Shown piece after piece: positions 3,114 through 64,000 of a stretch of 64,000 bases of DNA. How positions within the stretch are numbered: the first letter of the stretch is position 1; each line of letters begins with the position of its first letter. The DNA lies in the NCBI GenBank assembly GCA_013360395.1, contig JABWBQ010000003.1:18011-82010 (forward strand), in the 5' to 3' direction. The position numbers and the translations under genes were made by a program. The notes beneath the pieces are model-generated. The model made no database searches. It was not told where the DNA came from and was given only the letters and a program-made list of their open reading frames with translations. The DNA comes from Flavobacteriales bacterium. Its GTDB lineage: Bacteria > Bacteroidota > Bacteroidia > Flavobacteriales_F > PHOS-HE28.

Positions 3114-3965
3114 CTACGCCGCACCCCCGCCCGCCCATTCCGGCACGGCGGCCCACGTGATGCAGTTGAACACGCCGCCATCGCGCGCGATGGGCATGGC
3201 GTCCAACGCGATGATGTGGTGGTCGGGGAACAGTTCCTGCATGCGGCACAGGGCGGCCTCGTCCTCGGGCTGGCCGAACTGCGGCACCACGATGCGGCCT
3301 TGGTGGCACAGGTAGTTGATGTAGCAGCCCACGGCCGATCCGGCGCGGCCCATGGCGCGGGGCGCGTAGGGTAGTTCCTCCACGGTGAGCCCGGCTTCGC
3401 GCAGGGCGCGGCGCACGCTGCGGCCCAGATCGGGGTCGATGTCGCGGTAGTCGTTCATCACCACGGCGTCGGGACCCAACACGCGCACCATGCCATCGGC
3501 GTGGCCCGTGAAGTCGGCCGCGTCGTCGGAGATCAGCACGATGCGCGACACGCCCAGCCGTTCCGACAGTTCGTCCATGATCTGCCGGTTCGTGCGGTTC
3601 GGGTTCTCGCGCAGCACCTTCCGTGTCAGCACCGCATAGTCCGGCCCCAGGATCACGTTGCCGCCGTCCACGATCAGGTCGCAATGCTCGCGGGGCACGT
3701 CGGGCTGCACCGTGATGGTGCTGGCCTCCACGATGGTGCGGAGGTACTTGGGCGAGCGCACGAGGTAGTCCGGCCAGTAGCGGAACTGCACCAACACCCC
3801 GCGCACGGTGGCCACGGGCATATAGTCCCGGCACCACGGGTTGTTCTGGGCCTGCCACAGTGTGGACATGCGCAACCCCGCTTGGGTCACGATGGGGCAG
3901 GCATCGTTGAAGAACGGCTGGTAGGCGCGCAGGGCCTCGGCGACGTAGAGTATTGGGGTGGGCAT
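3114..3965 (-). CDS. agmatine deiminase / peptidyl-arginine deiminase (PAD_porph)-like guanidino-modifying enzyme (283 aa)
   Basis: Motifs LIVDGGNVILG, FTGHADGMVRVL and the C-terminal DGGVFNCITW (catalytic Cys context, compare GGNIHCITQQ of agmatine deiminases). It is shorter than canonical AguA. Confidence 0.65.
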   Translation of the reverse strand: MPTPILYVAEALRAYQPFFNDACPIVTQAGLRMSTLWQAQNNPWCRDYMPVATVRGVLVQFRYWPDYLVRSPKYLRTIVEASTITVQPDVPREHCDLIVDGGNVILGPDYAVLTRKVLRENPNRTNRQIMDELSERLGVSRIVLISDDAADFTGHADGMVRVLGPDAVVMNDYRDIDPDLGRSVRRALREAGLTVEELPYAPRAMGRAGSAVGCYINYLCHQGRIVVPQFGQPEDEAALCRMQELFPDHHIIALDAMPIARDGGVFNCITWAAVPEWAGGGAA

Positions 3966-32527: not shown

Positions 32528-32671
32528 CGTGTGTTTACGGTAACCGCTTTGCGTGTCGCCTGAAAACCACGCCGATCCCGATCCTTTGCGGCCCGATCAG
32601 CGACCAGGCCCCGGCTGCTCATCCCATTGTCTGATCTTCTGATCGCCTAATTTTCTGATCGCCAGATCGCC

Positions 32672-32761
32672 ATGCACTCCATCCAGCAAGTCCTCTCCGA
32701 TGCATCGCTCACCGGCACCACCCTCACCGTGGCCGGCTGGGTGCGCACCCTGTGCTACTAA
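32672..32761 (+). pseudogene. orphan 5' fragment of an asparaginyl-tRNA synthetase gene (29 codons then TAA)
   Basis: Translates to MHSIQQVLSDASLTGTTLTVAGWVRTLCY*, compared with the intact AsnS N-terminus MDLTSIKSVLDETPTNTTVTVAGWVRTFRN at 38429. It shares an exact 21-nt block, GTGGCCGGCTGGGTGCGCACC (32729-32749 = 38489-38509). Confidence 0.6.
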
Positions 32762-51316: not shown

Positions 51317-52768
51317 ATGGGTAAGGGTTTTGGGAAAAGCGCACCGTGCTCCGCGTCTTGGCGCCTCCGCGCTACCCTCCTGACCGGCTTTCTCACCTTT
51401 TCACTTTTTCACCCTGCCACTCTCTTCTCCCAAGCCCCCTACATCCCGCCCTCCGATCCGCTGGTGAAGGAGAAGCTCGCCCAATGGCAGGACCTGAAGT
51501 TCGGCCTGCTGATGCACTGGGGGCCGTACAGCCAATGGGGCGTGGTGGAGAGCTGGAGCATCTGCCCGGAGGATGAGCCCTGGTGCCGACGCGACTCGTC
51601 CCATGGGAAGACTTACTACGAGTACGTGAAGAACTACGAGGCGCTGCAGACCACCTTCAACCCCACGGCCTTCGATCCGGGCAAGTGGGCCGAAGCCGCG
51701 AAGGATGCCGGCATGAAGTACGTGGTGTTCACCACCAAGCACCACGATGGCTTCTGCATGTTCGACACCAAGCTCACGGACTACAAGGTCACCTCGCCGC
51801 GTTGCCCCTTCCACGGCGATCCGCGCGCCAACATCGCCAAGCAGGTCTTTGATGCCTTCCGCAGCGCAGGCTTGTGGACCGGCGCTTATTTCAGCAAGCC
51901 CGATTGGCACTGCCCGTACTACTGGTGGCCCTACTTCCCGCCCAAGGACCGCAACGTGAACTACCTGCCCTCGCGCTATCCCGAGCGCTGGCAGCAATTC
52001 AAGGACTTCACCTACGGACAGATCGAGGAGCTGATGTCGGACTACGGGAAGATGGACATCCTCTGGCTCGATGGCGGGCAGGTGCGGCCGCTGAATACGA
52101 TTGACACCACGGTCTCCTGGCAGAAGGCCATTGCCATCGACCAGGACATCGACATGCCGCGTATCGCAGCCATGGCGCGCAAGCACCAGCCCGGCCTGCT
52201 GGTGGTGGACCGCACCGTGGGCGGGGAGTATGAGAACTACATCACCCCCGAAGGCCATGTGCCGGAGAAGGATCCCGGCGTGCCTTGGGAGACCTGCATG
52301 CCCATGGGCACCAGCTGGAGCTGGGTACCGAATGAAAAGTACAAGAGCACCGAGGAGATCATCCGCACCCTGGCGCAGGTGGTGACGCGCGGCGGCAGCC
52401 TGCTGCTGAACGTGGGTCCCCGTCCCGATGGCCGCTGGGACTCCACGGCCTATCAGCGCCTGGCTGATGTAGGCGCATGGCTGAAGACCAACGGCGAGGC
52501 CATCTACGGAACGCGCGCCAGTACCTGGGAAACGCATGGCGCCATTGGCTGCACACAAAGCAAGGACGGCCGCACACACTACCTCCTCGGCGAGGCGAAA
52601 GGCGTCCCCTGGTCCTTCGCGTGGAAAGGCCGCGAAATGCCCATGGCCACGCTGCTGGCAACAGGCCAGGTGCTTCGCCTGAAGACCGGACAGCCCGGCT
52701 TCCTGATGCTGGAACTACCGCCAGGAGCGGAGCAGGGAGGTGTGGTCGTGGTGAAGATCGAGGGATAA
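51317..52768 (+). CDS. alpha-L-fucosidase (GH29)
   Basis: KFGLLMHWGPYSQWG, AKDAGMKYVVFTTKHHDGFCMFDT, DILWLDGG, hallmark GH29 motifs. The start codon is uncertain (51266 or 51317). Confidence 0.85.
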   Translation: MGKGFGKSAPCSASWRLRATLLTGFLTFSLFHPATLFSQAPYIPPSDPLVKEKLAQWQDLKFGLLMHWGPYSQWGVVESWSICPEDEPWCRRDSSHGKTYYEYVKNYEALQTTFNPTAFDPGKWAEAAKDAGMKYVVFTTKHHDGFCMFDTKLTDYKVTSPRCPFHGDPRANIAKQVFDAFRSAGLWTGAYFSKPDWHCPYYWWPYFPPKDRNVNYLPSRYPERWQQFKDFTYGQIEELMSDYGKMDILWLDGGQVRPLNTIDTTVSWQKAIAIDQDIDMPRIAAMARKHQPGLLVVDRTVGGEYENYITPEGHVPEKDPGVPWETCMPMGTSWSWVPNEKYKSTEEIIRTLAQVVTRGGSLLLNVGPRPDGRWDSTAYQRLADVGAWLKTNGEAIYGTRASTWETHGAIGCTQSKDGRTHYLLGEAKGVPWSFAWKGREMPMATLLATGQVLRLKTGQPGFLMLELPPGAEQGGVVVVKIEG

Positions 52769-53059: not shown

Positions 53060-53319
53060 AGTACACCGTCGTATTGGCGCGGGATGCACGCAAGGAGTTG
53101 GACCTGTTGTCCAAGCAGAACTTCATTCGTGTGGCGCGCAAGATCGACGAACTCGAGGAGGATCCCCGGCCACCGGGCTGTGTGAAGCTCAAAGGCAACG
53201 ATGGCGACATGTGGCGGGTCCGTGCCGGGGACTACCGGATACTCTATGTGATCGAGGATGTGCTGCGGATCGTGGATATCCGCAAGATCGGCCACCGGCG
53301 CGATGTCTATAAGCGATAG
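53056..53319 (+). CDS. RelE/ParE-family type II toxin (87 aa)
   Basis: MKYTVVLARDARKELDLLSKQNFIRVARKIDELEEDPRPPGCVKLKGNDGDMWRVRAGDYRILYVIEDVLRIVDIRKIGHRRDVY, the canonical RelE/StbE pattern (R.G.YRI.Y.I.D....I..I.HR...Y). Confidence 0.8.
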   Translation: MKYTVVLARDARKELDLLSKQNFIRVARKIDELEEDPRPPGCVKLKGNDGDMWRVRAGDYRILYVIEDVLRIVDIRKIGHRRDVYKR

Positions 53320-53338
53320 GGCCGAGCAAGGTTTTCTG

Positions 53339-55201
53339 ATGGTGGGCCGATTCTTCGCCCTGGTCTTTGCGCTCGGCATTGGTATGTCCTGTGCCTTGGG
53401 CCAATCCCCCTTCACCTTCCGCATGGTGTACTACGGCCCGGCCACGGACAGCGCCTATGCCGCCGAGCATCACGTCCGTCAGGTGATCAAGACCCGCGAT
53501 TCCGAAGACCCCGACTGGGGCCTGTGGGTACACACCATGCACCGCTTTGTTCCTGCGGACCTGATCGGGAAACATCCCGAATACTTCGCCGAGCGGAATG
53601 GCATGCGTGTTCCCGACCAGCTGTGCCTGAGCAATCCGGAGGTGCTGCGCATCACCGTGGACAGCCTGCGCGCGATGATGGCCCGCAAGCCGCACGCGCG
53701 GTACTGGAGCGTCAGCCAGCTGGACAACTTCAACTACTGCCAATGCGCCCGCTGCCACCGCACGGACAGCATCGAGGGTTCGCCCAGCGGGAGCATCCTG
53801 CTCTTCACGAATGCCGTGGCCGACAGTTTTCCCGAAAAGGTGATCAGCACGCTGGCCTATCAGCACAGCCGCAAGGCACCCAAGCTCACCGAGCCGCGGC
53901 CCAACGTGAACATCATGCTGTGCAGCATCGAGGAGGACCGCAGCCAGCCCATCGCCACGCGCGACCAGCCCGGCTCCTTCACCGCCGACCTGCGCGAATG
54001 GGCGTCGCTCACCCACAACATCATTATCTGGGATTATGTGATCAACTTCTCGCACCTGGTGATGCCTTTCCCCAACTGGAAGGTGCTGCAACCCAACATC
54101 CAGCTGTTCCGCGACAACGGTGTGCCCATGGTCTTCGAGCAAGGGCTCTCTTCCTCCGGCGGCGAAATGCCCGAGTTCCGTTGCGAGCTCCTGGCGCAAT
54201 TGCTCTGGAACCCCGATATCAACGTGGATTCGCTGCGCACGGCGTTCCTCCACCAGTTCTACGGCGATGCGGGCGTGTACATCAACGAGTACACCCACCT
54301 CCTGGAAACGGAACTCGACAAATCGGGCAAGGCGCTCACGCTCTATGAGCACCCGCAGTCGCACAAGGATGGCTACCTCAGCCCGGAGAACATCGCGAAG
54401 TACAAGATGCTCTTCAACAGCGCAGAGGCGGCGGTGATGGACGAGGATACGATCTACCAATGGCGCGTGGAGGATGCGCGGCTCGGGATCATGTACGCCG
54501 AGCTGGAGATCGCCCGGGCCATGCCGCACGCGCCCAACGGGCTTTTCGAGAAGGACAGCCAGGGCCATTGGCGCGCGAAGCCCTACTACGTGGAACTGTT
54601 GAACACCTTCGTATCCAGGGCGAAGAAGCACGGTCACCGGCTGCTGCACGAGACCCGCAACACGCCCGACGAATACTTCGCCGACTTCAGCGATCACCTG
54701 CGGAACGGCGCCGTGAACCACTTGGCCGTGGGCAACACGATCACCTTCGCGGTCCCGCCCGCCGCCAAATACAACGGCGGAAGCGCCGATGCCCTGATCG
54801 ACGGTTTCCGAGCGGGCAATAACTACCAGTTCGGCTGGCAGGGCTGGTGGGGCAAGGACCTGGTGGCCACGATCGACCTGGGCACGATCGAACCCGTGAA
54901 GGAAGTGGAAACCGCCTTCCTACAGGACCAGGCCAGCTGGATCTTCCTGCCGTCCGTGGTTGAAGTGGAATACTCGAATGATGGCATCACTTGGTCGCCC
55001 TTCGGAACCCAGGAGATCCCCTTGGCCAAGCAGCAAGGTCCGCCAGCCCCTCATGCGGTGCGCATCGCGGCCCATTCACCGGTGAGCATGCGTTACCTGC
55101 GCTTCACCGCCCGCAACCGGGGAGCATTACCCCCGTGGCATGGGAGCAAAGGCGATTGCTGGTTGTTCTGCGATGAGGTCGTGGTGTCCGGGAATGAATA
55201 A
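53339..55201 (+). CDS. DUF4838 glycoside-hydrolase-like protein with a C-terminal F5/8 type C (discoidin) domain
   Basis: Signal peptide MVGRFFALVFALGIGMSCALGQ. YFAERNGMRVPDQLCLSNPEVL...QLDNFNYCQCARC (DUF4838 pattern). The C-terminus has DGFRAGNNYQFGWQGWWG...YLRFTARN (discoidin-like). Confidence 0.75.
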   Translation: MVGRFFALVFALGIGMSCALGQSPFTFRMVYYGPATDSAYAAEHHVRQVIKTRDSEDPDWGLWVHTMHRFVPADLIGKHPEYFAERNGMRVPDQLCLSNPEVLRITVDSLRAMMARKPHARYWSVSQLDNFNYCQCARCHRTDSIEGSPSGSILLFTNAVADSFPEKVISTLAYQHSRKAPKLTEPRPNVNIMLCSIEEDRSQPIATRDQPGSFTADLREWASLTHNIIIWDYVINFSHLVMPFPNWKVLQPNIQLFRDNGVPMVFEQGLSSSGGEMPEFRCELLAQLLWNPDINVDSLRTAFLHQFYGDAGVYINEYTHLLETELDKSGKALTLYEHPQSHKDGYLSPENIAKYKMLFNSAEAAVMDEDTIYQWRVEDARLGIMYAELEIARAMPHAPNGLFEKDSQGHWRAKPYYVELLNTFVSRAKKHGHRLLHETRNTPDEYFADFSDHLRNGAVNHLAVGNTITFAVPPAAKYNGGSADALIDGFRAGNNYQFGWQGWWGKDLVATIDLGTIEPVKEVETAFLQDQASWIFLPSVVEVEYSNDGITWSPFGTQEIPLAKQQGPPAPHAVRIAAHSPVSMRYLRFTARNRGALPPWHGSKGDCWLFCDEVVVSGNE

Positions 55202-55227
55202 ACCGCAACGGCGCAACGGGCGCCAAG
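55201..55227 (+). repeat. solo CGCAACG-type repeat unit
   Basis: aaccgcaacggcgcaacgggcgccaag starts on the last base of the stop codon. It belongs to the same unit family as the array at 62790-63100. Confidence 0.6.
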
Positions 55228-55244
55228 TGGATCACGCAGCGTGA

Positions 55245-55332
55245 GCCTGGCACCTTGACCTCTTGGCATCTTGGCATTTTGGCAATTTGGCAGTTTGCCA
55301 CCTTACTGTTTTAGCAATTTGGCTACTTGCCG
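55245..55332 (+). repeat. degenerate 8-bp tandem array (consensus nTTTGGCA, 11 units)
   Basis: gcctggca ccttgacc tcttggca tcttggca ttttggca atttggca gtttgcca ccttactg ttttagca atttggct acttgccg. Strict 8-nt phasing, ending 32 nt before the ATG at 55365. Confidence 0.75.
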
Positions 55333-55364
55333 GTGAATCCCTCCTCCGCAGATATACTTGCCCC

Positions 55365-56504
55365 ATGCCCCGCGTCTTCGTCTCCGGCTGCTTCGACATG
55401 CTGCATAGCGGCCACGTGGCCTTCCTGAAGAGCGCCGCGGAATACGGCGAGCTGCACGTGTGCATCGGCAGCGACCGCACCATCCACGGCATCAAGGGGC
55501 GGTACACGGTGAACGATGAACGGGAACGCCGCTACATGCTGGAGGCGCTGGCCTGCGTGCATGCGGTCCACATCGGTTCCGGCACCGGGCAGATGGATTT
55601 CGTACCGGAATTCGCGCAGGTGAAGCCCGACTTCTTCGTGGTGAACCACGACGGCCATGCGGACGCGAAGGCGGAGCTCTGCAAGCAGCACGGCACGCGC
55701 TACGTGGTGCTGGAGCGCACGCCGCACGTCGGCCTCCAGGCGCGCAGCACCACCGCCCTGCGCGAGGCCTGCACCATCCCCTTCCGGCTGGACCTGGCCG
55801 GCGGCTGGCTCGATCAGCCCTTCGTCTCGCGCCACCATCCGGGCAGCGTGCTCACCATCAGCCTGGAGCCCACGCACGCCTTCAACGACCGCAGCGGCAT
55901 GAGCAGCAGCACGCGCCGCAAGGCCATCGAGCTGTGGCGTACCCGCCTGCCGCACGGCGACCGCGAGCAGCAGGCCCGCATGCTCTTCAGTTACGAGAAC
56001 CCGCCCGGCACCGTGGAGGTCAGCGGCTCGCAGGACAGCATCGGCATCGTCTTCCCCGGCCTCAACCGGCTGCACTACGCCGGCGGCTACTGGCCGGAGC
56101 AGATCGACAGCGTGCAGGACGAGGCTGTGCTCCGCTTCATCGAAACGCACCTGCACCTGCTGCCGCTGGGTCCGCGCGAGGATGGCTTCCGCGTGTTGCA
56201 GGACACCCGCGTGGACGCCGCCGGTGCCCAGACCCTGGCCGATGCCGCCGAAGCCTGCTGGAACGCCGCGCGGGCGATGGATGCACGTGCCTTCGGTGCG
56301 GCCATGCGCGCATCCTTCGAAGCCCAGGTGGCCATGTTCCCGCACATGGTGGATGCCTCGATCCAAGCGACCATCGACGCCAACGCACACCAGGCCCTCG
56401 GCTGGAAGCTCAGCGGCGCCGGGGGCGGCGGCTACCTCGTGCTCGTGGCGGATCGGCCCGTGCCCGGCACCCTCCAACTGAAGGTCCGCCGCGACGACCT
56501 GTGA
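55365..56504 (+). CDS. cytidylyltransferase-like nucleotidyltransferase fused to a GHMP-family sugar kinase (379 aa)
   Basis: N-terminus MPRVFVSGCFDMLHSGHVAFL (the (H/T)xGH motif of the TagD/HldE-C-type nucleotidyltransferase fold). The C-terminal part has LDLAGGWLDQPF, NDRSGMSSSTRRKA (GHMP motif II-like) and KLSGAGGGGYLVLV (GHMP motif III). Confidence 0.7.
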   Translation: MPRVFVSGCFDMLHSGHVAFLKSAAEYGELHVCIGSDRTIHGIKGRYTVNDERERRYMLEALACVHAVHIGSGTGQMDFVPEFAQVKPDFFVVNHDGHADAKAELCKQHGTRYVVLERTPHVGLQARSTTALREACTIPFRLDLAGGWLDQPFVSRHHPGSVLTISLEPTHAFNDRSGMSSSTRRKAIELWRTRLPHGDREQQARMLFSYENPPGTVEVSGSQDSIGIVFPGLNRLHYAGGYWPEQIDSVQDEAVLRFIETHLHLLPLGPREDGFRVLQDTRVDAAGAQTLADAAEACWNAARAMDARAFGAAMRASFEAQVAMFPHMVDASIQATIDANAHQALGWKLSGAGGGGYLVLVADRPVPGTLQLKVRRDDL

Positions 56505-56506
56505 GC

Positions 56507-57733
56507 ATGGAGCCGCGCAGCACCCGCCTCGCCATCGTGCTGGTCACCGGCCTGTTCTTCCTGTGGGCCCTGGCGCACAACCTCAACCCCATCCTCATCC
56601 CCCACCTGCGGCGCGCGTTGCAGCTCAACGACATGCGTTCCGCGCTGGTGGACTCGGCCTTCTTCATCGCCTACTTCGTGATGGCCCTGCTCGCCGGTGC
56701 GCTGATGAAACGCTTCGGCTACCGCAGCGGCATCGTGGGCGGCCTCTTGCTCTTCGCCCTCGGCGCCATGCTCTTCTGGCCCGCGGCCACGCTGCGTTCC
56801 TACCCCTTCTTCCTCGGTGCCCTCTTCGTGATCGCCAGCGGCCTCACCTTCCTGGAGACCGCCGCCAACCCGTACATCACCGCGCTGGGCGATCCCGCGC
56901 ACGCGCACCGGCGGCTCAACTTCGCGCAAGCCTTCAACGGCCTGGGCGCCGCGCTGGCGGCCTTCTTCGGCGGGCGCTTCATCCTCAGCGGCGATGCACC
57001 CGGCGAGGACGTGCTGAAGACCATGTCACCGTCCGCGCTGGAGGCCTTCCTCACCCACGAGGCCCTGGCCGTGCGCGTGCCCTACCTCATCATCGGCTGC
57101 ATCGTGCTGCTCGTGGCGCTGCTCTTCCTGCGCGCGCACCTGCCGGAGATCCCCGAGGCCGACAACGGGGACAGCACAGGCCCCGGCCGCCTGACCGGCC
57201 GCCTGCGGATGGGCGTGCTGGCACAGTTCTGCTACGTGGGCGCGCAGGTGGGTGTGGCCAGCTTCTTCATCCGCTTCGCGGGAAGCACAGCGGGCATCGG
57301 CGAACAGGACGCCGCCTACCTGCTCAGCATCGGCCTGTTGCTCTTCATGGCCGGCCGCTTCATCGGCACCGCGCTGTTGCGCTGGTTCAGCGCCCCGGAC
57401 CTGCTCGCCGCCTGTGCCGCGCTCTGCCTGCTGCTCACCGCCACCGCCGTGCTGGCCACCGGCTACCCGGCCGTGATCGCCCTGCTGGGTGTGGAACTCT
57501 TCATGAGCATCATGTTCCCCACCATCTTCTCGCTGAGCATCGAAGGCTTGGGCAGCCGCACCAAATTCGGCAGCTCCCTGCTGGTGATGAGCATCGTGGG
57601 CGGCGCGGTGATCCCGCCGATCATGGGCGCCATCAGCGACCGGCACGGCCTGCAACTCGCGTACCTGGCGCCGCTGTGCTGCTTCGTGGTGGTGCTGTGG
57701 TTCGCGCGGTGGAGCAGGGCGACTGTCCGGTAG
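56507..57733 (+). CDS. fucP: L-fucose:H+ symporter-type MFS permease
   Basis: LVTGLFFLWALAHNLNPILIPHLRRALQLNDMRSALVDSAFFIAYFVMALLAGALMKRFGYRSGIVGGL matches the FucP/GluP N-terminal signature. 12 TM helices. Confidence 0.8.
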   Translation: MEPRSTRLAIVLVTGLFFLWALAHNLNPILIPHLRRALQLNDMRSALVDSAFFIAYFVMALLAGALMKRFGYRSGIVGGLLLFALGAMLFWPAATLRSYPFFLGALFVIASGLTFLETAANPYITALGDPAHAHRRLNFAQAFNGLGAALAAFFGGRFILSGDAPGEDVLKTMSPSALEAFLTHEALAVRVPYLIIGCIVLLVALLFLRAHLPEIPEADNGDSTGPGRLTGRLRMGVLAQFCYVGAQVGVASFFIRFAGSTAGIGEQDAAYLLSIGLLLFMAGRFIGTALLRWFSAPDLLAACAALCLLLTATAVLATGYPAVIALLGVELFMSIMFPTIFSLSIEGLGSRTKFGSSLLVMSIVGGAVIPPIMGAISDRHGLQLAYLAPLCCFVVVLWFARWSRATVR

Positions 57734-58034
57734 GTTTTTTGCGATCCGACACGCTGTGTAACTTACGCCTGTCCTTTGCTTCACTGTTCTGTGAACAAGG
57801 AAAGGACCTTCGTTACCGCGGTAGCAACGAGACAGCAGAAACCAAACCCCAAGCCCTTGGCAAGATCCGCAGCCCCCTCGATGACTTGGACCTGAGTTGA
57901 GAACCATTTCGCTTTGCAAGCCAATTGGCTGGCTTTACGAAACGCACATCTTCACCCAAGTCTGGAAATTGACGCAATGCGTAAATCCACCGTTGGCGCC
58001 AACTCTAAACCCAAGGACGACCTGGTCCAACGCA

Positions 58035-59006
58035 ATGAAGAACTTAACATCAGGTCTTCTTCTGGCAATTTGCCATAATTCCTTTTCACAGGAACCAATC
58101 TTCGCGACCATTTCTGGCGGAGATCTTTATTCGTTCAACATAGAAACGTGCACTCGAACGTTTAAAGGTGCCACGGGGTATGGCTTTGGTGATATTGCGT
58201 TTACCCCAAACGGAGAATTATGGGGTATTGTTTCAGGAAACCTCTACCATATTGATACGACTTCCGCAATTGCGACCTTGATCGGAAGCACCGGCATTGG
58301 AGCGGTATCACTTGTCGGCCTAAATGATACAACCTTACTGGCGGATTTGGGCTTCAATCTTTATGGTATTAATACGAATACTGCAACATCCTATTACATA
58401 GACCATATTGGTTATCAAAGCACAGGCGATTTGACTTGGTATGATGATGATTTATACATTGTTACAGCAGCCGGTCAGATAGTCAGAATAATTTTGAATG
58501 AGACATATTCATCAATACTTAGTGTCGTTCCTATTGGTTCATCTATACCCACATGCGAAGGCGCAGTAACTGCAGCTTTTATTGGAGACTACAACTCTAT
58601 TGTAGGTTTCCATGGCCCTGACCTCATTAAGATTTGCCAGATTGATGGCACATACCAGACGCTCTGCCCTGGGTTAAATTTTGGAGGCACTCCGGGTGCA
58701 GCGTCAATTAGACTGGCCTCTCAATCTCCAGAACCATTGTCTTGTATCCCGACTTCAATTCAAAGATCTCCGGCGGCTATGGAGATATTCATATACCCGA
58801 ACCCAACGAATAGTAGTATCAATATTTCGTCGTCCATCCCAAGTTCGTACAATTATTCAATCTACAATGCAATTGGACAATTAGTTAGATTCGGAGCTGC
58901 GAAGGCTGATACCGCTATTCCATTGGATGATTTATGTAACGGAATGTACAGTATAGAAATTAGAAATGAGACGAAGAAGTTTAGGCAGCGTTTCATGCTT
59001 CAATAA
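58035..59006 (+). CDS. secreted protein with a T9SS C-terminal sorting domain, encoded in a low-GC segment (323 aa)
   Basis: Signal peptide MKNLTSGLLLAICHNSFSQ. C-terminal IFIYPNPTNSSINIS...YNAIGQLV...GMYSIEIRNETKKFRQRFMLQ. Conspicuously AT-rich compared with the flanks. Confidence 0.7.
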   Translation: MKNLTSGLLLAICHNSFSQEPIFATISGGDLYSFNIETCTRTFKGATGYGFGDIAFTPNGELWGIVSGNLYHIDTTSAIATLIGSTGIGAVSLVGLNDTTLLADLGFNLYGINTNTATSYYIDHIGYQSTGDLTWYDDDLYIVTAAGQIVRIILNETYSSILSVVPIGSSIPTCEGAVTAAFIGDYNSIVGFHGPDLIKICQIDGTYQTLCPGLNFGGTPGAASIRLASQSPEPLSCIPTSIQRSPAAMEIFIYPNPTNSSINISSSIPSSYNYSIYNAIGQLVRFGAAKADTAIPLDDLCNGMYSIEIRNETKKFRQRFMLQ

Positions 59007-59248
59007 TAAGAGCCGCCGCCAACAGCACCTAAACGCCAGCAGGCACTCGGCACTCCGATCGAATGGGAATCGTTTAACTTGAAGATCGCCGCATGGAAAG
59101 CTGGTCCCGGATAACCTGCATGTGCTTAGCTGCGATCCGTTAGCCCCAGTATTTCCCGCGCAAAATGGTTCACGATCACTATATCCAGATCGCTCTCGCT
59201 TTCCGACCCTTTCACTTTCTCACCTTCTGACCTGCGTTCCCGCACCCC

Positions 59249-59581
59249 ATGCTCCGCCACTACGCCCTCGACCTGAAGAACGATCCCGAGCTGATCGCCG
59301 CGTACGATGCCTGGCACCGGAAGGTGTGGCCCGAGGTGCTGGAGCATCTGCGGCAAAGCGGCATCACGCGCTGCACCATCCATCGTGCGGGCAACCGGCT
59401 CTTCATGTCGGTGGAGAGCAGCACGGGTGCGGCCACGGATGGCGGCGGCGCGGCACTGCCCGCCCGCGTGCAGGAATGGGAGGAGCTGATGGACACGTTC
59501 CAGCAGCGGTTGCCCTTCGCGAAGCCCGGCGAGAAATGGGTGGAGCTCCGCACGATCTTCGACTGGAAGGCCTCCGAGTGA
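59249..59581 (+). CDS. L-rhamnose mutarotase family (DUF718/RhaM-like) sugar mutarotase
   Basis: MLRHYALDLKNDPELIAAYDAWHRKVWPEVLEHLRQSGITRCTIHRAGNRLFM...W..LM, the RhaM family pattern. In this context the substrate could be fucose. Confidence 0.75.
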   Translation: MLRHYALDLKNDPELIAAYDAWHRKVWPEVLEHLRQSGITRCTIHRAGNRLFMSVESSTGAATDGGGAALPARVQEWEELMDTFQQRLPFAKPGEKWVELRTIFDWKASE

Positions 59582-59661
59582 TCTCTTCCTCAGCGCATCC
59601 GGAAGTCGGGATCAGCGCACCACAATTTTCCTAACTCCGGGGCTCAACCTGAGTTCCCAGG

Positions 59662-60072
59662 TCATTCCATTTGCCCGAGACTGAACCAGTTTCCACTATC
59701 GTCCTTGAACAGGGCTTCGGTGCCGTAAAATTCCTTGGTAGGCGGTTTCTTGAACTCGACACCCTTGGACCTCATCTCTTCATAAGTTGCATGGATGTCC
59801 TTGCAATGGAACACCCCGAAGCCGAACGTGCCCTTTCTGATCAGGTCGCGCATGGTAGCGGCGGTTTCCTTGTCCCAGTTATGGCCTGTGGCCACTGGCA
59901 TCAAGGCGATCTCCAGTTCGGGTTGCTCCGGAGGCGTTACCGTCAGCCATCGCATGCCGGGCCCCATTGGGGCATCGGTGTGGACCTTGAACCCGAGCTT
60001 GTTCACGTAAAAGTCGTACGCACTGTCCTGGTCGAGGACGTAGATGGTGGTGTGGGAAAGTTTGGCGATCAT
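59662..60072 (-). CDS. VOC/glyoxalase-family protein
   Basis: MIAKLSHTTIYVLDQDSAYDFYVNKLGFKV...GFGVFHCKDIHATYEEMRSKGVEF...FKDDSGNWFSL, a typical glyoxalase-fold pattern. Confidence 0.8.
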   Translation of the reverse strand: MIAKLSHTTIYVLDQDSAYDFYVNKLGFKVHTDAPMGPGMRWLTVTPPEQPELEIALMPVATGHNWDKETAATMRDLIRKGTFGFGVFHCKDIHATYEEMRSKGVEFKKPPTKEFYGTEALFKDDSGNWFSLGQME

Positions 60073-60133
60073 GGGTGTTGCGCCGAAGCCCGGCGTGTGT
60101 GTTTGGTTCGTGGAGGCAAAGCAAGGAGGAGGT

Positions 60134-60598
60134 TCAGCTCAGTTCTTGTCCGAAATTGCGGTTTTGAAGCCACCCGTTGAACCGTGCAAAACAGCCTGGG
60201 ATAAATGCCAGCGGTTCCAACGCCAAGGCTTCCGCCCGGGCCAGTTGATCCTCTCGATAGGTCGATGGCGCCACACCCACATGCCGCTTGAAAAGCCGGC
60301 TGAACGTGGCCGGACTGGTGAATCCCACCGCCATACAGACATCCGTCACCTGCATGCCCCTGCCTAGCAAACCCTGGGCCTTTTCCATCCGTACCCGGGT
60401 CAGGTAGGCATGCGGCGCGAGCCCGTAAATAGCCTTGAACAACCGGATGAAATGATACCTGGAAAAAGCCGCTTCCGAGGAGATCTCCGTCAAGTCGAGG
60501 GGGTCCGCGTAGTGTGCATCCATAAAGCACTTGGCCTTCACCACACGCCGGTATAAATAGGCCTTCGGATACGATTCCATACCGCGAATTTCGCCCAA
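60134..60598 (-). CDS. AraC-family HTH transcriptional regulator (short form)
   Basis: VVKAKCFMDAHYADPLDLTEISSEAAFSRYHFIRLFKAIYGLAPHAYLTRVRMEKAQGLL..VTDVCMAVGFTSPATFSRLFKRHVGVAPSTY. Confidence 0.8.
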   Translation of the reverse strand: MGEIRGMESYPKAYLYRRVVKAKCFMDAHYADPLDLTEISSEAAFSRYHFIRLFKAIYGLAPHAYLTRVRMEKAQGLLGRGMQVTDVCMAVGFTSPATFSRLFKRHVGVAPSTYREDQLARAEALALEPLAFIPGCFARFNGWLQNRNFGQELS

Positions 60599-60609
60599 CC
60601 ATGCTTCTC

Positions 60610-62760
60610 TCAGCGCACCACGAACTCATCGGCGAACACCCACGACGGGTTGCCCGCGCCCAGGGAACTGGCGGGCATCGGTCCTGCGTTCACCAGCGTG
60701 GCCCGCACGTAGCGCGCCTTGGTCGGCGTTGCGGGCCGTGCGCTGAAGGCGTGGATGATGCGCGGGCCGGGATCGTTGGGCACATCATGTGTCGCGCGCT
60801 CCAACGTGCTCCAGTGCTTGCCGTCCGTGGAGGTCTCGTAGATCACTTCGCGCGGCAGGAGGATCCACACAGCGACATCCTGCAGGCAGCGGATGCTCAG
60901 CTCGGTGATCTCCTGTTCCTGCCCGAGGTCCAGCGTGATCACGGGATCGGGGCCCCACCAGCCCTGCCATTGGCCGTCGCGGAAGCTCTCCGATCCGAGC
61001 AGCCCGTCGCTCATGCCCTTCGCCGGGTCGAAGCCGTACTTGGGATTGGGCAACGGGCTTACGGTCTGCGCGGCCTCCACGCCGAGGTGCCGCACGATCG
61101 GGATCGTCAGCGCGTCCTGCACGGGCTTCCCTTGCCATAGCGGTGTCAGGCTCCAGGTCCCGGCTTCCCGCACACGCAGGCTGTCGGTGAACACGCCGCT
61201 GGTGTCGGAGCCGGCAAAGGCCACGGTGATGTCGGGCCTTCCGCGTTGGGCGGTCACCAGCCAGTCCTTGCGCGCGGGTTCGTAGCGGATGCTGGCGGTG
61301 AAGAGGTCGGCATCCTGCGTGGCGGTGATCCAGCCTTCGCTTTCCACGCGCGCCACATGCGGGCGCATGCGCTCGCGGATGTCGGCGCGCGGCGCATCGC
61401 CGGTCCACAGGCGTTCGGCATACGGGAACTGGCGCGGGAACACCGAGTAGCCGAGGTTGCGTGGATCGCGCCCTTCGCTCCACACGGGGCATTCCGCGCC
61501 GAGCACCTGTAGGTCGCTGCCGTCCACGCGCGGGTCGAACTGCTCCACGCGCTCCAGCGTGAGCGAGGCCGGAGAGGCATCGAAGTAGATGGTGCGGATC
61601 ATGCGGTTGCCGTTGGCGCGTGCCTTTCGGGCCTGATCATCGCCGCGCCACACCTCGATGACGGCAGTGGAGTCCACGCCGCCTTCGAGGATCTCGTCCC
61701 AACCGATGAGCGTTTTGCCCTTGGCCTTCAGCATGCCTTGCAGCCGCTTCACCGCCCAAGCCTGCAATGCGTGCTCATCGGGCAGGCCCTCGGCGTGCAT
61801 CCGGCGCTGGCACACGGGGCAGGCATGCCAGCGATCCTTCGGCACCTCGTCGCCGCCGATATGGAAATACGCGGACGGGAACAGCGGCACCAGCTCGTCC
61901 AGCACATCCTGCATGAAGGTCCACGTGGCTTCCTGCCCCACGCAGTACACATCCTGGAAGACGCCCCAGGTGGTGGGCACGGGCAGCGTGTCCTTGCGGC
62001 AGCCGAGTTCAGGATACGCGGCCAGCGCGGCGCGGCAATGGCCGGGGAACTCGATCTCAGGGACCACGGTGATCCCGTGCTCGGCAGCGTAGCGCACCAC
62101 GCGCTTCACCTCCTCCTGCGTGTAGAAACCGCCGTAGCGCCTGCCATCGGCCTCGGTGCGCCAAGCGCCCACTTCGGTGAGGCGCGGGTACTTCTTCACC
62201 TCGATGCGCCAGCCTTGGTCGTCGGTGAGGTGCCAATGGAAGATGTTGATCTTGAGCCGTGCGAGCTCGTCGAGGTAACGCTCCAGGAAGTCCACCGGGT
62301 AGAAGTGGCGGCTCACATCGAGCATGGTGCCGCGCCAAGCGTAGGCCGGATGGTCCGCGATGCGCGCGCAGGGCCAGTACGATCCGCCTTCAGCGGTGGT
62401 GGTCATTTGTCGCAATGTGGCCAAGGCGTTGAACACTCCGGCGGCATCGCTCACCCGAACCTCGGCGCGTGTTGGAGCGATGTCCAGCACATAGCCCTCC
62501 TTCGGCAGCTGAGGATCGCGGCGCAGGTACAGCGGATGGAGCAGTTCATCGTTCGCGGTGGCTTTGGCACTGATCGCGGACAGGAAGTCCAACAGCGGTG
62601 TTGCAACCACTTCCAAGCCGGGATCGGCGTGCAACGAGACGTACTCCAACCGGAAGCGGCTATCGAGCCATTCCACCGAACGCGGCCAAGGGATCAGGGA
62701 GGGCTGGGCGTGCAGACCAAGACTGAGAAGCCAGAGGATGAGGGGAAGGAGGCGGGGCAT
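60610..62760 (-). CDS. beta-N-acetylhexosaminidase (GH20) with a C-terminal F5/8 type C domain
   Basis: Signal peptide MPRLLPLILWLLSLGLHAQ. RGTMLDVSRHF, INIFHWHLTDDQGWRIE, YFHIGGDEV (GH20 catalytic D-E). The C-terminus has FRDGQWQGWWG...YVRATLVN. I chose the ATG at 62760; the track ORF runs on through the repeat array to 63423. Confidence 0.9.
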   Translation of the reverse strand: MPRLLPLILWLLSLGLHAQPSLIPWPRSVEWLDSRFRLEYVSLHADPGLEVVATPLLDFLSAISAKATANDELLHPLYLRRDPQLPKEGYVLDIAPTRAEVRVSDAAGVFNALATLRQMTTTAEGGSYWPCARIADHPAYAWRGTMLDVSRHFYPVDFLERYLDELARLKINIFHWHLTDDQGWRIEVKKYPRLTEVGAWRTEADGRRYGGFYTQEEVKRVVRYAAEHGITVVPEIEFPGHCRAALAAYPELGCRKDTLPVPTTWGVFQDVYCVGQEATWTFMQDVLDELVPLFPSAYFHIGGDEVPKDRWHACPVCQRRMHAEGLPDEHALQAWAVKRLQGMLKAKGKTLIGWDEILEGGVDSTAVIEVWRGDDQARKARANGNRMIRTIYFDASPASLTLERVEQFDPRVDGSDLQVLGAECPVWSEGRDPRNLGYSVFPRQFPYAERLWTGDAPRADIRERMRPHVARVESEGWITATQDADLFTASIRYEPARKDWLVTAQRGRPDITVAFAGSDTSGVFTDSLRVREAGTWSLTPLWQGKPVQDALTIPIVRHLGVEAAQTVSPLPNPKYGFDPAKGMSDGLLGSESFRDGQWQGWWGPDPVITLDLGQEQEITELSIRCLQDVAVWILLPREVIYETSTDGKHWSTLERATHDVPNDPGPRIIHAFSARPATPTKARYVRATLVNAGPMPASSLGAGNPSWVFADEFVVR

Positions 62761-62789
62761 TGGGGGGTGAAAGATGGGCAAGAGAGAAG

Positions 62790-63100
62790 AACCACAACGG
62801 CGCAACGGACGCAACGTTTGAGAGATAACCGCAACGGCGCAACGAGCGCAACGTTTGAGGAATAACCGCAAAGACGCAACGAGCGCAACGGAAATGACAT
62901 ATCCGCAACGACGCAACGGCTGAGGGGAAACCGCAACGACGCAACGGGCGCAACGTTTGGGGAATAACCGCAACGACGCAACGAGCGCAACGGAAATGAC
63001 ATATCCGCAACGACGCAACGGCTGAGGGGCAACCGCAACGGCGCAACGCACGCAAAGGAATGGGGGGAACCGCAACGGGCGCAACGAGCGCAACAGAAAT
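62790..63100 (+). repeat. tandem array of 9 CGCAACG-triplet units (26-39 nt each) containing a 102-nt higher-order duplication
   Basis: The unit is aaCCGCAACGnCGCAACGrGCGCAACG plus a 10-12 nt tail (tttgaggaat / gaaatgacatat / gctgagggga). The segment 62864-62965 is repeated almost exactly at 62966-63067. Confidence 0.85.
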
Positions 63101-63134
63101 GCGCGTGATCCGGGGCAGTAGAACACAAATACCG

Positions 63135-63518
63135 TCAGTCGGGCATGCCGTTGGCGATGCGGCGGATGCCGTTCTTGAGCAGCTTTTCGTTGAAGTTGAT
63201 GAGCAGGCCCAGCCTGTTGTCCGTCAGCTTCAGGTAGGTGATCAGCTGGGCGGAGTGGATGGGGTGCAGGGCCTCCACCGCCTTCACTTCGACGATGAGC
63301 TTGCGTTCCACCCAGAGGTCCAAGCGGTAACCGGCATCCAAGTATACCGAGCGGTACTTCAGGGGCAGCGCCACCTGCATCCGGCAGTTCAGCCCAAGCT
63401 CGGCGATCTCGAAGGCCAGGCAATGGGCGTAGGCGTTCTCGAGCAGACCAGGCCCCAGCTCCCGGTGCACCCGGAATGCAGCCTCCACCACCTGTTCAGC
63501 GATCTGGTTCTCGTCCAT
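63135..63518 (-). CDS. GxxExxY protein (PD-(D/E)XK nuclease-fold family, 127 aa)
   Basis: EQVVEAAFRVHRELGPGLLENAYAHCLAFEI (GLLENAY is the GxxExxY motif), ...YRLDLWVERKLIVEVKAV..LHPIHSAQLITYLKLT..RLGLLINF, the PD-(D/E)XK core D..E.K. Confidence 0.85.
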   Translation of the reverse strand: MDENQIAEQVVEAAFRVHRELGPGLLENAYAHCLAFEIAELGLNCRMQVALPLKYRSVYLDAGYRLDLWVERKLIVEVKAVEALHPIHSAQLITYLKLTDNRLGLLINFNEKLLKNGIRRIANGMPD

Positions 63519-63599
63519 TGATTGAAGTCTGGGTCTATGCCAAACTACTCACCAATGTCGTTCAGCACACGGTGTGCATGACCAGCGGTTGGTGTACGG

Positions 63600-63682
63600 C
63601 CATCTCCCCCACGTTGCGGTCGTTGCGCCGGCGCTGCAGAACCATCTCCCCCACGTTGCGCCCGTTGCGCCCGTTGCGGTAA
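63600..63682 (-). repeat. two CGCAACG-triplet units in inverted orientation relative to the 62790-63100 array
   Basis: Plus strand: ccatctcccccaCGTTGCGgtCGTTGCGccggcgctgcagaa, then ccatctcccccaCGTTGCGccCGTTGCGccCGTTGCGGtaa. The reverse complement of the second is accgcaacgggcgcaacgggcgcaacgtgggggagatgg, which matches the left-array unit. Confidence 0.8.
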
Positions 63683-63696
63683 AACCTCTGAGTCTC

Positions 63697-64000
63697 TCAA
63701 TTGAACCCGCCTTCCCCCCGGTACAACCTCACCGGCCCGTCCAGCTTCACTTTCACCACGTCCATCCACGGATCGGTGGGCTGCGCGGGCACGTCGATGA
63801 AGACCAGTCCCGGCACCTTGCTCCAACCGATCTTGCCCACCACGCGGTGCTGCAGGGCCTGCCCGGTGCCAAGCAGTTCAGCGGAGAGGATCTTGTTGTC
63901 GAGGCCCTTGATCTCCACGCTGCCCGTCATGCCGTTGGCGAGGAAGAGATAGAGCGTGGTGCTGTCCGCGCTCAATGTTGTGGGACCGAAGAAGTGGCCG
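63697..64000 (-). CDS. C-terminal end of a glycoside hydrolase (GH29 alpha-L-fucosidase-like beta-sandwich tail), partial at the window edge
   Basis: The frame stays open to position 64000. The tail ...TTLYLFLANGMTGSVEIKGLDNKILSAELLGTGQALQHRVVGKIGWSKVPGLVFIDVPAQP...VVKVKLDGP resembles fucosidase C-terminal domains. The apparent start in the ORF track is an internal TTG. Confidence 0.4.
   Translation of the reverse strand, partial: GHFFGPTTLSADSTTLYLFLANGMTGSVEIKGLDNKILSAELLGTGQALQHRVVGKIGWSKVPGLVFIDVPAQPTDPWMDVVKVKLDGPVRLYRGEGGFN

Follow-up and report, generated by a model that had tools for sequence, protein, structure and literature searches.

A GxxExxY gene enclosed by inverted heptamer arrays as a candidate intervening-sequence-like hairpin cassette outside rRNA

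A stretch of 64,000 nt from a Flavobacteriales bacterium (contig JABWBQ010000003.1 of assembly GCA_013360395.1; hereafter the window) contains a gene for a GxxExxY protein, which lies between inverted arrays of the heptamer CGCAACG. From the analyses described here we conclude, with a probability of about 0.55, that this block represents a hairpin cassette of a widespread type, i.e. a promoter-less open reading frame (ORF) of about 125 amino acids (aa) in the loop of a long inverted repeat, which resembles the intervening sequences (IVSs) of 23S rRNA but resides outside rRNA. This figure is a compromise between two parts of the reading, since the architecture of the locus and the family assignment are very likely to be correct, while the RNA-level mechanism is more tentative. 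GxxExxY proteins occur in 23S rRNA IVSs, and an earlier note on the window, made from the sequence alone, had suggested that arrays and ORF form one unit analogous to such an IVS. This suggestion gained support, as the layout recurs across phyla with arms that match within each locus. A literature search by family names, accessions and arm sequences returned no earlier account of the flanking arrays, though one may exist outside the reach of this search, and the matches to arm sequences were unrelated papers, probably containing primer sequences. As no earlier description was found, the tie of such paired sites to GxxExxY and PF05635 ORFs, to hairpins and to many phyla appears to be new.

Architecture of the locus

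The ORF product matches the profiles PF13366 (6e-40, 136.7 bits vs a cut-off of 22, covering positions 2-117 of the 117 in the profile) and TIGR04256 (6e-41, 139.4 bits vs a cut-off of 35), and PDDEXK_3/GxxExxY is its sole match in Pfam or NCBIfam. In the family alignment, D67 and E77 of the predicted catalytic motif D67...E77-x-K79 are invariant and K79 is nearly invariant. The AlphaFold2 model of the protein (mean predicted local distance difference test score, pLDDT, of 94) displays an alpha/beta nuclease fold, whose best neighbours in the PDB are Cas4, lambda-exonuclease-like enzymes and splicing endonucleases (template modelling score, TM, about 0.5), which is generic for the PD-(D/E)XK fold. 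A sequence search of the PDB with the family profile gave no match to a solved relative.

The nine units on the left of the ORF, the 102-nt duplication among them and the two inverted units on the right, which had been described in the earlier note, are indeed present and exceed chance by far. The sequence CGCAACGNCGCAACG (up to one mismatch) occurs nine times in the window, compared to 0.09 expected occurrences, with eight copies within 62793-63048 and the ninth at 55204. The window contains 54 exact CGCAACG heptamers, 26 of which are located within 62801-63678, i.e. 21 on the left (plus strand) and five on the right (minus strand). Tandem Repeats Finder (TRF) reported a period of 37 nt at 62782-63021 and a higher-order period of 102 nt at 62801-63101 (88% matches, 2.9 copies), and a unit scan placed the nine arm-unit starts at 62793, 62830, 62867, 62904, 62932, 62969, 63006, 63034 and 63071 and the two inverted units at 63612-63627 and 63654-63678. 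The left units are built as aaC-CGCAACG-n-CGCAACG-nn-CGCAACG plus a short tail on the plus strand; an arm comprises two or three heptamers, with the outer ends ACC (left) and GGT (right). Within units the heptamers are spaced by 8 or 9 nt, so that the 9-nt spacing in the earlier note describes only part of them. The best inverted pair joins 63069-63094 with 63655-63680 (26 nt, 96% complementary). The coordinates of all features are listed in Table 1.

Table 1 Features of the GxxExxY locus and related features in the window.
Feature	Position	Strand	Basis or remark
GxxExxY/PDDEXK_3 ORF, 127 aa (384 nt)	63135..63518	-	PF13366 and TIGR04256 profile matches
Array of nine arm units (aaCCGCAACGnCGCAACGnnCGCAACG plus 13-17-nt tail)	62790..63098	+	Downstream arms in gene orientation, CGTTGCG...GGT
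102-nt higher-order tandem duplication inside the left array	62864..63067	+	TRF
Gene-proximal arm unit, 3' half of predicted closing stem	63069..63095	+	96% complementary pair; paired in minimum free energy and centroid structures
Two arm units upstream of the gene (gene strand: ACCGCAACGggCGCAACGggCGCAACGtgggggagatgg plus two-heptamer copy), each after ccatctccccca	63600..63682	-	
Outer upstream arm, 5' half of predicted closing stem	63654..63680	-	Inverted pair and RNA fold
Degenerate ORF-less hairpin	55201..55300	+	ACC-CGCAACG-CGCAACG-CGCCAAG, loop, CTTGGCA x2, TTTGGCA x2
GH20 hexosaminidase gene	60610..62760	-	Co-oriented, directly downstream of the array; flanking host gene
Alpha-L-fucosidase gene, 3' end	63697..64000	-	Co-oriented upstream neighbour; flanking host gene

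The inverted 9-mer GCGTGATCC, to which the earlier note had drawn attention, is present at 63103-63111, with its complement at 55229-55237. It is retained in one orthologous locus (L037; collected loci carry L numbers) but not in the orthologues L130 and L222, and is therefore probably incidental. We also considered a CRISPR array, in which identical repeats of 23-50 nt would alternate with unique spacers of comparable length; however, the 37-nt period consists of the heptamer triplet and a 13-17-nt tail that repeats as well, and since there are no unique spacers between the units this candidate was rejected. A search against Rfam identified no family in window positions 54500-64000 at E-values up to 1.

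Short-read contigs from Logan with the identical gene (L001-L010) all end about 135 nt downstream of the gene inside the arm array (10 of 10), which indicates that the repeat breaks de Bruijn assemblies. This class of repeats thus interrupts short-read assemblies, and it could be mistaken for regulatory sites or CRISPR-like arrays.

The same layout around GxxExxY genes in many phyla

Metagenomes were scanned with the family alignment, which yielded 80 diverse GxxExxY loci with 49-62% identity to the window protein, including 73 loci with usable flanks. Judged by eye, the great majority of the 80 loci harbor TT(A/C)ACC followed by 2-4 tandem 8-9-mers upstream of the ORF and complementary units ending in GGT(G/T)AA downstream of it, and the unit types comprise CGCAGAG, CGCAAAG, CACAAAG, CACAGAG, CACGGAG, CGCCGAG and CGCCAAG. 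An ungapped stem score of at least 12 between the 150-nt upstream and downstream flanks was reached by 58% of the 73 loci. The controls gave 0% with flanks shifted by 400 nt, 0% with shuffled flanks and 11% with arms exchanged between loci. Tandem heptamers (at least two units, period 8-10) were found upstream in 64 and downstream in 64 of the 73 loci, with 57 loci having them on both sides, and arrays of at least three units within 100 nt were present in 31% of the flanks vs 0 of 375 control windows. In 24 of 42 loci the consensus heptamer was the same on both sides of the ORF, whereas 5.3 such loci would be expected from random pairing.

The ORF fits closely between the arms, as the median distance is 14 nt between arm and ATG and 7 nt between stop codon and arm. 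Across hairpins with tandem arms the loop length is bimodal: ORF-less loops measure 0-200 nt, and loops with one ORF of about 125 aa measure 350-500 nt. The units share the consensus C-R-C-N-R-A-G across phyla, with the outer ends ACC and GGT, and by sequence comparison CGCAACG of the window can be regarded as one variant of this heptamer family. The arms of L162 and L191 combine CGCAACG with CGCAAAG, and protein identity is 65% between cassettes that share a heptamer and 56% otherwise. A cassette of the same layout with CACAGAGG/CCTCTGTG arms was found in a member of the Geobacteraceae (L012: CCACAGAGG CCACAGAGG AACACAGAGG AATAC ATG ... tga gaa CCTCTGTG a CCACTGTGG), where the gene lies between apparent nuo (NADH dehydrogenase) genes, as judged by eye. 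Tandem arm-ORF-arm-arm-ORF runs are present in L162, L179 and L215.

The recurrence of this layout also bears on the simplest alternative, i.e. an unrelated minisatellite beside the gene whose inverted arrangement arose by chance. Tandem amplification with periods of 37 and 102 nt is typical of slippage, but heptamer and unit counts lie far above chance, the arrangement is conserved in orthologues at saturated synonymous divergence (dS), and the layout recurs in most of the 73 unrelated loci, so that we consider this explanation effectively refuted. Carriage by phages was rejected as well, because a search of 2.9 million viral contigs revealed only one relative, which has the same kind of arms. 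At the gathering score, Rfam contained no relevant family and no large-subunit rRNA in 40 cassette loci (L142-L181). The single match, a full-length one to RF02514 (5' ureB small RNA, 108 bits) beside the cassette of L159 (1982-2267), is unrelated and probably represents the antisense of the conserved ureB coding region.

A second cargo family

GxxExxY proteins are not the only cargo of such hairpins. In L053 of the Saprospiraceae, a hairpin with (GTTGATAAG)x3 arms encloses an ORF of the '23S rRNA intervening sequence protein' family PF05635 (1.4e-23), and three further PF05635 ORFs in the collected loci are flanked by short tandem repeats. Inverted arrays are present on both sides in L113 and in one copy of L101, and the other L101 copy has an upstream array only, with the contig ending downstream. 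The units of L113, which belongs to the Flavobacteriales, are GTTGCGTG/CACGCAAC and have the CGCAAC core in common with the window. PF05635 proteins are documented inside rRNA intervening sequences, and PF05635 genes were noted inside cas operons (PMC3936711). The earlier note had considered the repeats as binding or cleavage sites of the nuclease-fold protein; this idea is weakened, as an unrelated four-helix-bundle family occupies the same kind of hairpin.

Inheritance of the cassette

The identical protein and its close relatives derive from activated-sludge and bioreactor metagenomes (metagenome-assembled genomes, MAGs, of Flavobacteriales), and the order of fucosidase gene followed by GxxExxY gene is retained in the relatives. 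The downstream arm is tandemly amplified, with 9 copies in the window and 2-11 in relatives (Table 2).

Table 2 The GxxExxY cassette in the window and in orthologous loci.
Locus	GxxExxY identity to window (aa)	Gene following GxxExxY	Downstream arm units
Window	100%	GH20	9
L130	97%	GH20	6
L037	96%	GH20, inferred from conserved start region	about 6
L222	98% (fucosidase 89%)	GH20	11, near-identical, 41-nt period
L132-L141	83-84%	rhaM, convergent	2-3

The amplified arms are confined to relatives with a co-oriented GH20 gene after the GxxExxY gene, e.g. the eleven copies of CGTTGCGccCGTTGCGtCGTTGCGgtcaattctccccgaa located between both genes at 4925-5330 of L222. At L132, L133 and L138, a single triplet is present on each side of the ORF (...tga gggttgaC CGCAACGgCGCAACGagCGCAACG gaatacc ATG ... 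stop actt CGTTGCGctCGTTGCGcCGTTGCG gtcaattc), and the outer flanks of the triplets are complementary, too. Next comes a direct duplication of about 98 nt (6389-6560 in L132), in which a second arm is accompanied by a repeated 3' end of the convergent rhaM gene; this points to arm-mediated duplication of flanking DNA.

The ratio of nonsynonymous to synonymous divergence (dN/dS) among the orthologous GxxExxY genes is 0.04-0.09, which shows strong purifying selection on the protein. The window and L132 differ by a dS of more than 2 but have the same heptamers in both arms, so that the arms are either selected or homogenised.

The relative L223 (fucosidase 86% identical, same upstream genes) contains neither the GxxExxY gene nor an array, and its GH20 gene starts 6 nt after the fucosidase stop codon. 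Because of this short distance, fucosidase and GH20 genes are likely to form a single transcription unit, and insertion of the cassette inside this unit is the better reading. The GxxExxY ORF of L226 and L227, in which the fucosidase is 74% identical, has in-frame stops, yet two upstream arms and one downstream arm are present. From the absence in L223 and the decay in L226 and L227 we conclude that the block is of old age, with a probable loss in one lineage and ongoing decay in another. The comparison of relatives that had been proposed in the earlier note thus revealed absence of the whole block, its decay and variation in unit number. As judged from the aligned loci, the cassette has been vertically inherited at this site. 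Among the ideas of the earlier note, that of a small mobile element gains no support from this copy, which occupies the same site in relatives with saturated synonymous sites and thus shows no recent mobility. No target-site duplication was seen at the flanks compared across orthologues, and no transposase was found.

Hairpins without an ORF

A scan of one genome per species for (CGCAACG N1-2)x3 returned at least 119 stretches. Matches with a 9+9-nt period were set aside as coding repeats, since they mostly represent unrelated in-frame repeats of high-GC taxa. Among the matches listed, those whose period is 8 nt or mixed lie in intergenic DNA, for the most part with an inverted partner at a distance of 13-230 nt, which gives at least 34 pairs in the order (CGCAACGn)3...(nCGTTGCG)3 and at least 14 in the opposite order. 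Such paired arrays were found in Geobacteraceae, Saprospiraceae, Flavobacteriales, Pyrinomonadaceae, Methylococcaceae, Verrucomicrobia, Gemmatimonadaceae and others. Complementarity extends beyond the arrays (gatttctca/tgagaaatc in L084, acggctttga/tcaaggccgt in L042), and in L102 both arms are altered together to CGCAAAG/CTTTGCG. From the pairing of the arrays, the outer complementarity and the joint change in L102 we conclude that these are hairpin-forming inverted repeats of about 30 bp with tandem-heptamer arms. Whole hairpins are also repeated in tandem: in L089 (1581-2069) forward and reverse arms alternate and the loops measure about 145 and 33 nt, and in L127 (3038-3664) the period is 204 nt. 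In L068 (236-3922; Deferrisomatales), more than 10 copies of another palindromic repeat, GGGCGACGCATGCGTCGCCC, lie beside CGCAACG hairpins and look like classical repetitive extragenic palindromic (REP) sequences.

Most CGCAACG hairpins among the matches listed are ORF-less, and a GxxExxY gene lies beside such a hairpin only in the orthologous L037 and in two Sphingomonadales loci (L047, L114). Dispersed CGCAACG hairpins occur in related Flavobacteriales MAGs (three in L039, further ones in L029, L113 and L117), and the 64-kb window contains a degenerate one. The latter explains the repeat at 55201-55227, which was described in the earlier note as a solo unit; the repeat is present, but represents the left arm of this ORF-less hairpin. 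Where the DUF4838 gene is followed by the CTP-transferase gene, the orthologous spacer contains an ACC...GGT hairpin in three genomes with differing units, i.e. CGCAACG/CGCCAAG with CTTGGCA in the window, CGCAAAG in L132 and CACAGCG/CTCTGTG in L138. The hairpins of L132 and L138 differ though dS of the GxxExxY gene is only 0.28 between both, and since the spacer units differ even in close relatives, ORF-less hairpins apparently turn over faster than the block. Remnants of a GxxExxY ORF were found in none of 26 ORF-less loops, which leaves an origin of these hairpins by internal deletion, as in miniature inverted-repeat transposable elements (MITEs), unsupported. The earlier note had also named an outcome that would speak against its proposal, i.e. 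units scattered over the genome without association to GxxExxY genes and a block that is never absent or polymorphic in relatives. This is not what we observed; the association is strong when counted from the side of GxxExxY genes, though most CGCAACG hairpins are ORF-less.

Paired arrays of this kind were described before in a single genome. For Geobacter metallireducens, Aklujkar et al. (2009) reported paired sites of GTTGCTYN x4 (24 pairs) and of TCTCCGTS x3 (21 pairs), which lie on opposite strands at variable distance, in intergenic regions and within operons, and near which elements of the IS110 and IS481 insertion sequence families are inserted at fixed distance; the authors interpreted them as binding sites of an unknown global regulator (PMC2700814). 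The arrays described here agree with the description of these class 1/2 sites (three to four tandem octamers or nonamers, opposite-strand pairs, variable distance, intergenic location), and TCTCCGTS is the arm motif of the GxxExxY cassettes L169, L183 and L201. In contrast to the present results, the sites were described as protein-binding and in one genome, with no tie to GxxExxY or IVS-protein ORFs, to hairpins or to other phyla.

These sites lead to a second alternative, according to which the hairpins are host operon punctuation or sites of host factors (a global regulator, IHF/HU or REP-like mRNA stabilisers) and the ORF is a lodged passenger. The class 1/2 paired arrays of G. metallireducens sit between operon genes, namely nifD/nifK, pdhA/pdhB and ntrX/ntrY (PMC2700814). 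Further agreement comes from the excess of ORF-less over ORF-bearing hairpins among the CGCAACG matches listed, from the persistence of a hairpin at the orthologous spacer while its sequence changes and from the C-R-C-N-R-A-G consensus common to different phyla. However, the arms of one element match at variable positions far more than the arms of different loci, which a single consensus would not require. Moreover, the margins of few nucleotides and the two specific small protein families as cargo indicate an integrated unit rather than accidental lodging, and in L223 the whole block is missing including its arms. We therefore consider a role as host sites quite improbable.

RNA-level evidence and proposed mechanism

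Folding the region as RNA, which had been suggested in the earlier note, predicted a stem of 26-33 bp that closes off the ORF. For the window, the closing stem comprises 27 bp (z = -2.2), and for L132 about 33 bp (minimum free energy, MFE, of -192 kcal/mol, z = -4.5), in both cases in the MFE and the centroid structure. Cassettes are found inside operons, and the ORF has the same orientation as the upstream neighbour in 52 of 60 loci and as the downstream neighbour in 46 of 57. In metatranscriptomes (assembled, low-depth Logan contigs), the ORF is covered together with parts of the arrays.

A mechanism that would be consistent with these observations starts with transcription of the cassette by read-through from the host operon. 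The arms could then pair in the operon transcript over at least 26 bp and so close off the ORF like the terminal inverted repeats of a 23S rRNA IVS, and an RNase specific for double strands, e.g. RNase III, might process this stem. Processing would free a stem-capped mRNA with the ORF, and insertions in operons would be tolerable, and the heptamer substructure may point to an additional sequence-specific reader of the arms. Based on folding and comparative analysis, we put the RNA stem and its processing at somewhat less than even odds.

Several observations weigh against this mechanism or the IVS-like reading as a whole. The metatranscriptome contigs are of low depth, may include DNA and have no mappable transcript ends. 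A first count of G·U and A·C pairs with lax alignment scoring was too noisy, and the 24 tight stems used instead show no wobble bias of the RNA type (14 G·U, 13 A·C and 28 transversions on the sense strand). Mismatches are located in the 1-2-nt spacers between the heptamers (stems parsed by eye, e.g. L153), which suggests that the heptamer sequence is kept beyond pairing alone. The surplus of arms on one side (9 vs 2 in the window, and up to 11 copies of one arm in relatives) has no role in a simple stem model, and a minority of cassettes is oriented opposite to the neighbours. Finally, none of the first 40 metagenomic GxxExxY loci (L142-L181) lies inside a 23S rRNA gene, so that the link to IVSs rests on protein family and architecture.

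Comparison with known systems

The 23S rRNA IVSs of Leptospira, Coxiella and others are a close parallel to the cassette. They contain a small ORF of the same two families, GxxExxY/PF13366 and PF05635, and their terminal inverted repeats pair around it over about 28 bp, compared to 26-nt arms with 96% complementarity and a predicted closing stem here. IVSs are inserted in a transcribed region without disrupting its function and are excised from the RNA by RNase III, which cuts the 28-bp terminal stem of the Coxiella IVS (PMC4990558); for the cassette, excision would be the corresponding step of the proposed mechanism. In contrast to IVSs, which lie in helix 9, 25 or 45, the block is located between the fucosidase and GH20 genes and thus is not an rRNA IVS by location, and its arms consist of tandem heptamers with one arm amplified. 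The parallels in cargo families and stem length support the IVS-like reading.

GxxExxY and '23S rRNA IVS' proteins are large, widespread families without known function, and the origin of rRNA IVSs is an old question. If the ORFs of both families usually reside in loops of heptamer-armed hairpins that are scattered over operons, rRNA IVSs would be a special case of a general cassette, and the 'global regulator sites' of Geobacter would be explained. For the function of the proteins, the arms offer concrete substrates, namely three heptamers as RNA or DNA.

The main rival of this reading is a DNA-level role as in the system of REPINs (hairpin-forming REP doublets) and REP-associated tyrosine transposases (RAYTs). 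The arrays would then be recognition sites of the encoded nuclease, either on single-stranded hairpins or in the form of paired ends, and the nuclease would maintain or spread ORF-less hairpins of its own arm family, and the gene would be a vertically inherited master copy. RAYT genes are known for their stable location and purifying selection. Likewise, the GxxExxY gene is a single nuclease-type gene, stably placed by vertical inheritance, under strong purifying selection and with a conserved D...ExK motif, and it is flanked by inverted copies of a cognate repeat that also forms ORF-less hairpins (L039, L029, L113, L117 and 55201 of the window), just as REP doublets are intergenic and occur in operons, too. 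The absence of G·U bias, the conservation of heptamers but not spacers (by eye) and the turnover of ORF-less hairpins, which differ in motif at one orthologous site even between close relatives, fit a DNA-level role as well. The same applies to the somewhat higher protein identity (65% vs 56%) between cassettes with a common heptamer and to the IS110-family elements that target the analogous paired sites of G. metallireducens at fixed distance, as they do at REPs.

On the other hand, the enzyme is of the PD-(D/E)XK type and not a Y1/HUH transposase, so that by its enzyme the block falls outside REPIN/RAYT systems, and tandem-heptamer arms replace the single REP palindrome. The protein is a bare nuclease core of 127 aa with no obvious DNA-binding module or strand-transfer activity, and a non-catalytic, unrelated fold (the four-helix bundle of PF05635) occupies the same kind of hairpin as a second cargo. 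No target-site duplication or insertion polymorphism of the cassette family was caught, the 26 ORF-less loops have no ORF remnant, and the orientation bias of the ORF is not predicted by this model. Taken together, we rate the DNA-level system as unlikely, albeit as the strongest competitor of the IVS-like cassette. A bolder reading, which we likewise consider doubtful, would be a pan-bacterial selfish or domesticated system of undescribed kind comprising GxxExxY nucleases, PF05635 proteins and heptamer hairpins. The hairpins might then be mobile or maintained units that spread into spacers and into rRNA, where they appear as IVSs, and the PD-(D/E)XK protein would act on its own arm family, i.e. 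as a REPIN/RAYT analogue with a different enzyme and an RNA-excisable design.

Integron cassettes with their attC sites are similar to the hairpin cassettes in several respects. Both have small, promoter-less ORFs with folding imperfect inverted repeats and occasional tandem runs (here L162, L179 and L215), and one may thus consider a site-specific cassette, in which a circular ORF-plus-hairpin would be moved by a recombinase acting on the folded arms. The co-orientation of the ORFs with their neighbours and the missing cassette in L223 would be compatible with this. attC core sites have the consensus RYYYAAC/GTTRRRY, which is resembled by the outer ends TTAACC/GGTTAA of low-GC variants, but the ends GGTTA/GGTAA of the window do not fit. 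The arms are split around the ORF instead of following it, the cassettes are solitary and scattered within operons, and attC sites have no heptamer substructure. The screen for integrase or recombinase genes was limited to gene tables of loci from the lineage of the window and revealed none, and there is no attI site. Movement by a recombinase is therefore very improbable. MITEs and insertion sequences share the terminal inverted repeats and the existence of ORF-bearing and ORF-less versions with the hairpin cassettes, but differ in that no transposase or target-site duplication was seen here and the ORF-less loops contain no ORF remnant.

Gene neighbourhood and further repeats

The genes at 53258-62760 encode, in this order, a DUF4838/F5-F8 type C protein, a CTP-transferase/GHMP-like protein, a major facilitator superfamily (MFS) transporter, a protein with a type IX secretion system (T9SS) tail, RhaM, a glyoxalase, an AraC regulator and GH20. 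Together with the fucosidase gene this looks like a cluster for the utilisation of fucose/hexosamine glycans. In relatives (L132) the cluster comprises the same genes except for the GH20/AraC/glyoxalase segment. As the earlier note had correctly pointed out, the entire region upstream of the GH20 gene is taken up by the left array.

Other short tandem arrays of 8-9-mers are located in intergenic spacers of the window at 32626-32672 (CTGATCT/CTGATCG/CAGATCG directly before an ATG), 51388-51412 (CTTTCTCAC type) and 59190-59233 (CTTTCAC/TTCTCAC/TTCTGAC). The CTTTCTCAC type is the complement of GTGAGAAAG units, which form a hairpin in the APH/fucosidase spacer beyond the right end of the window (L001, about 3700-3800).

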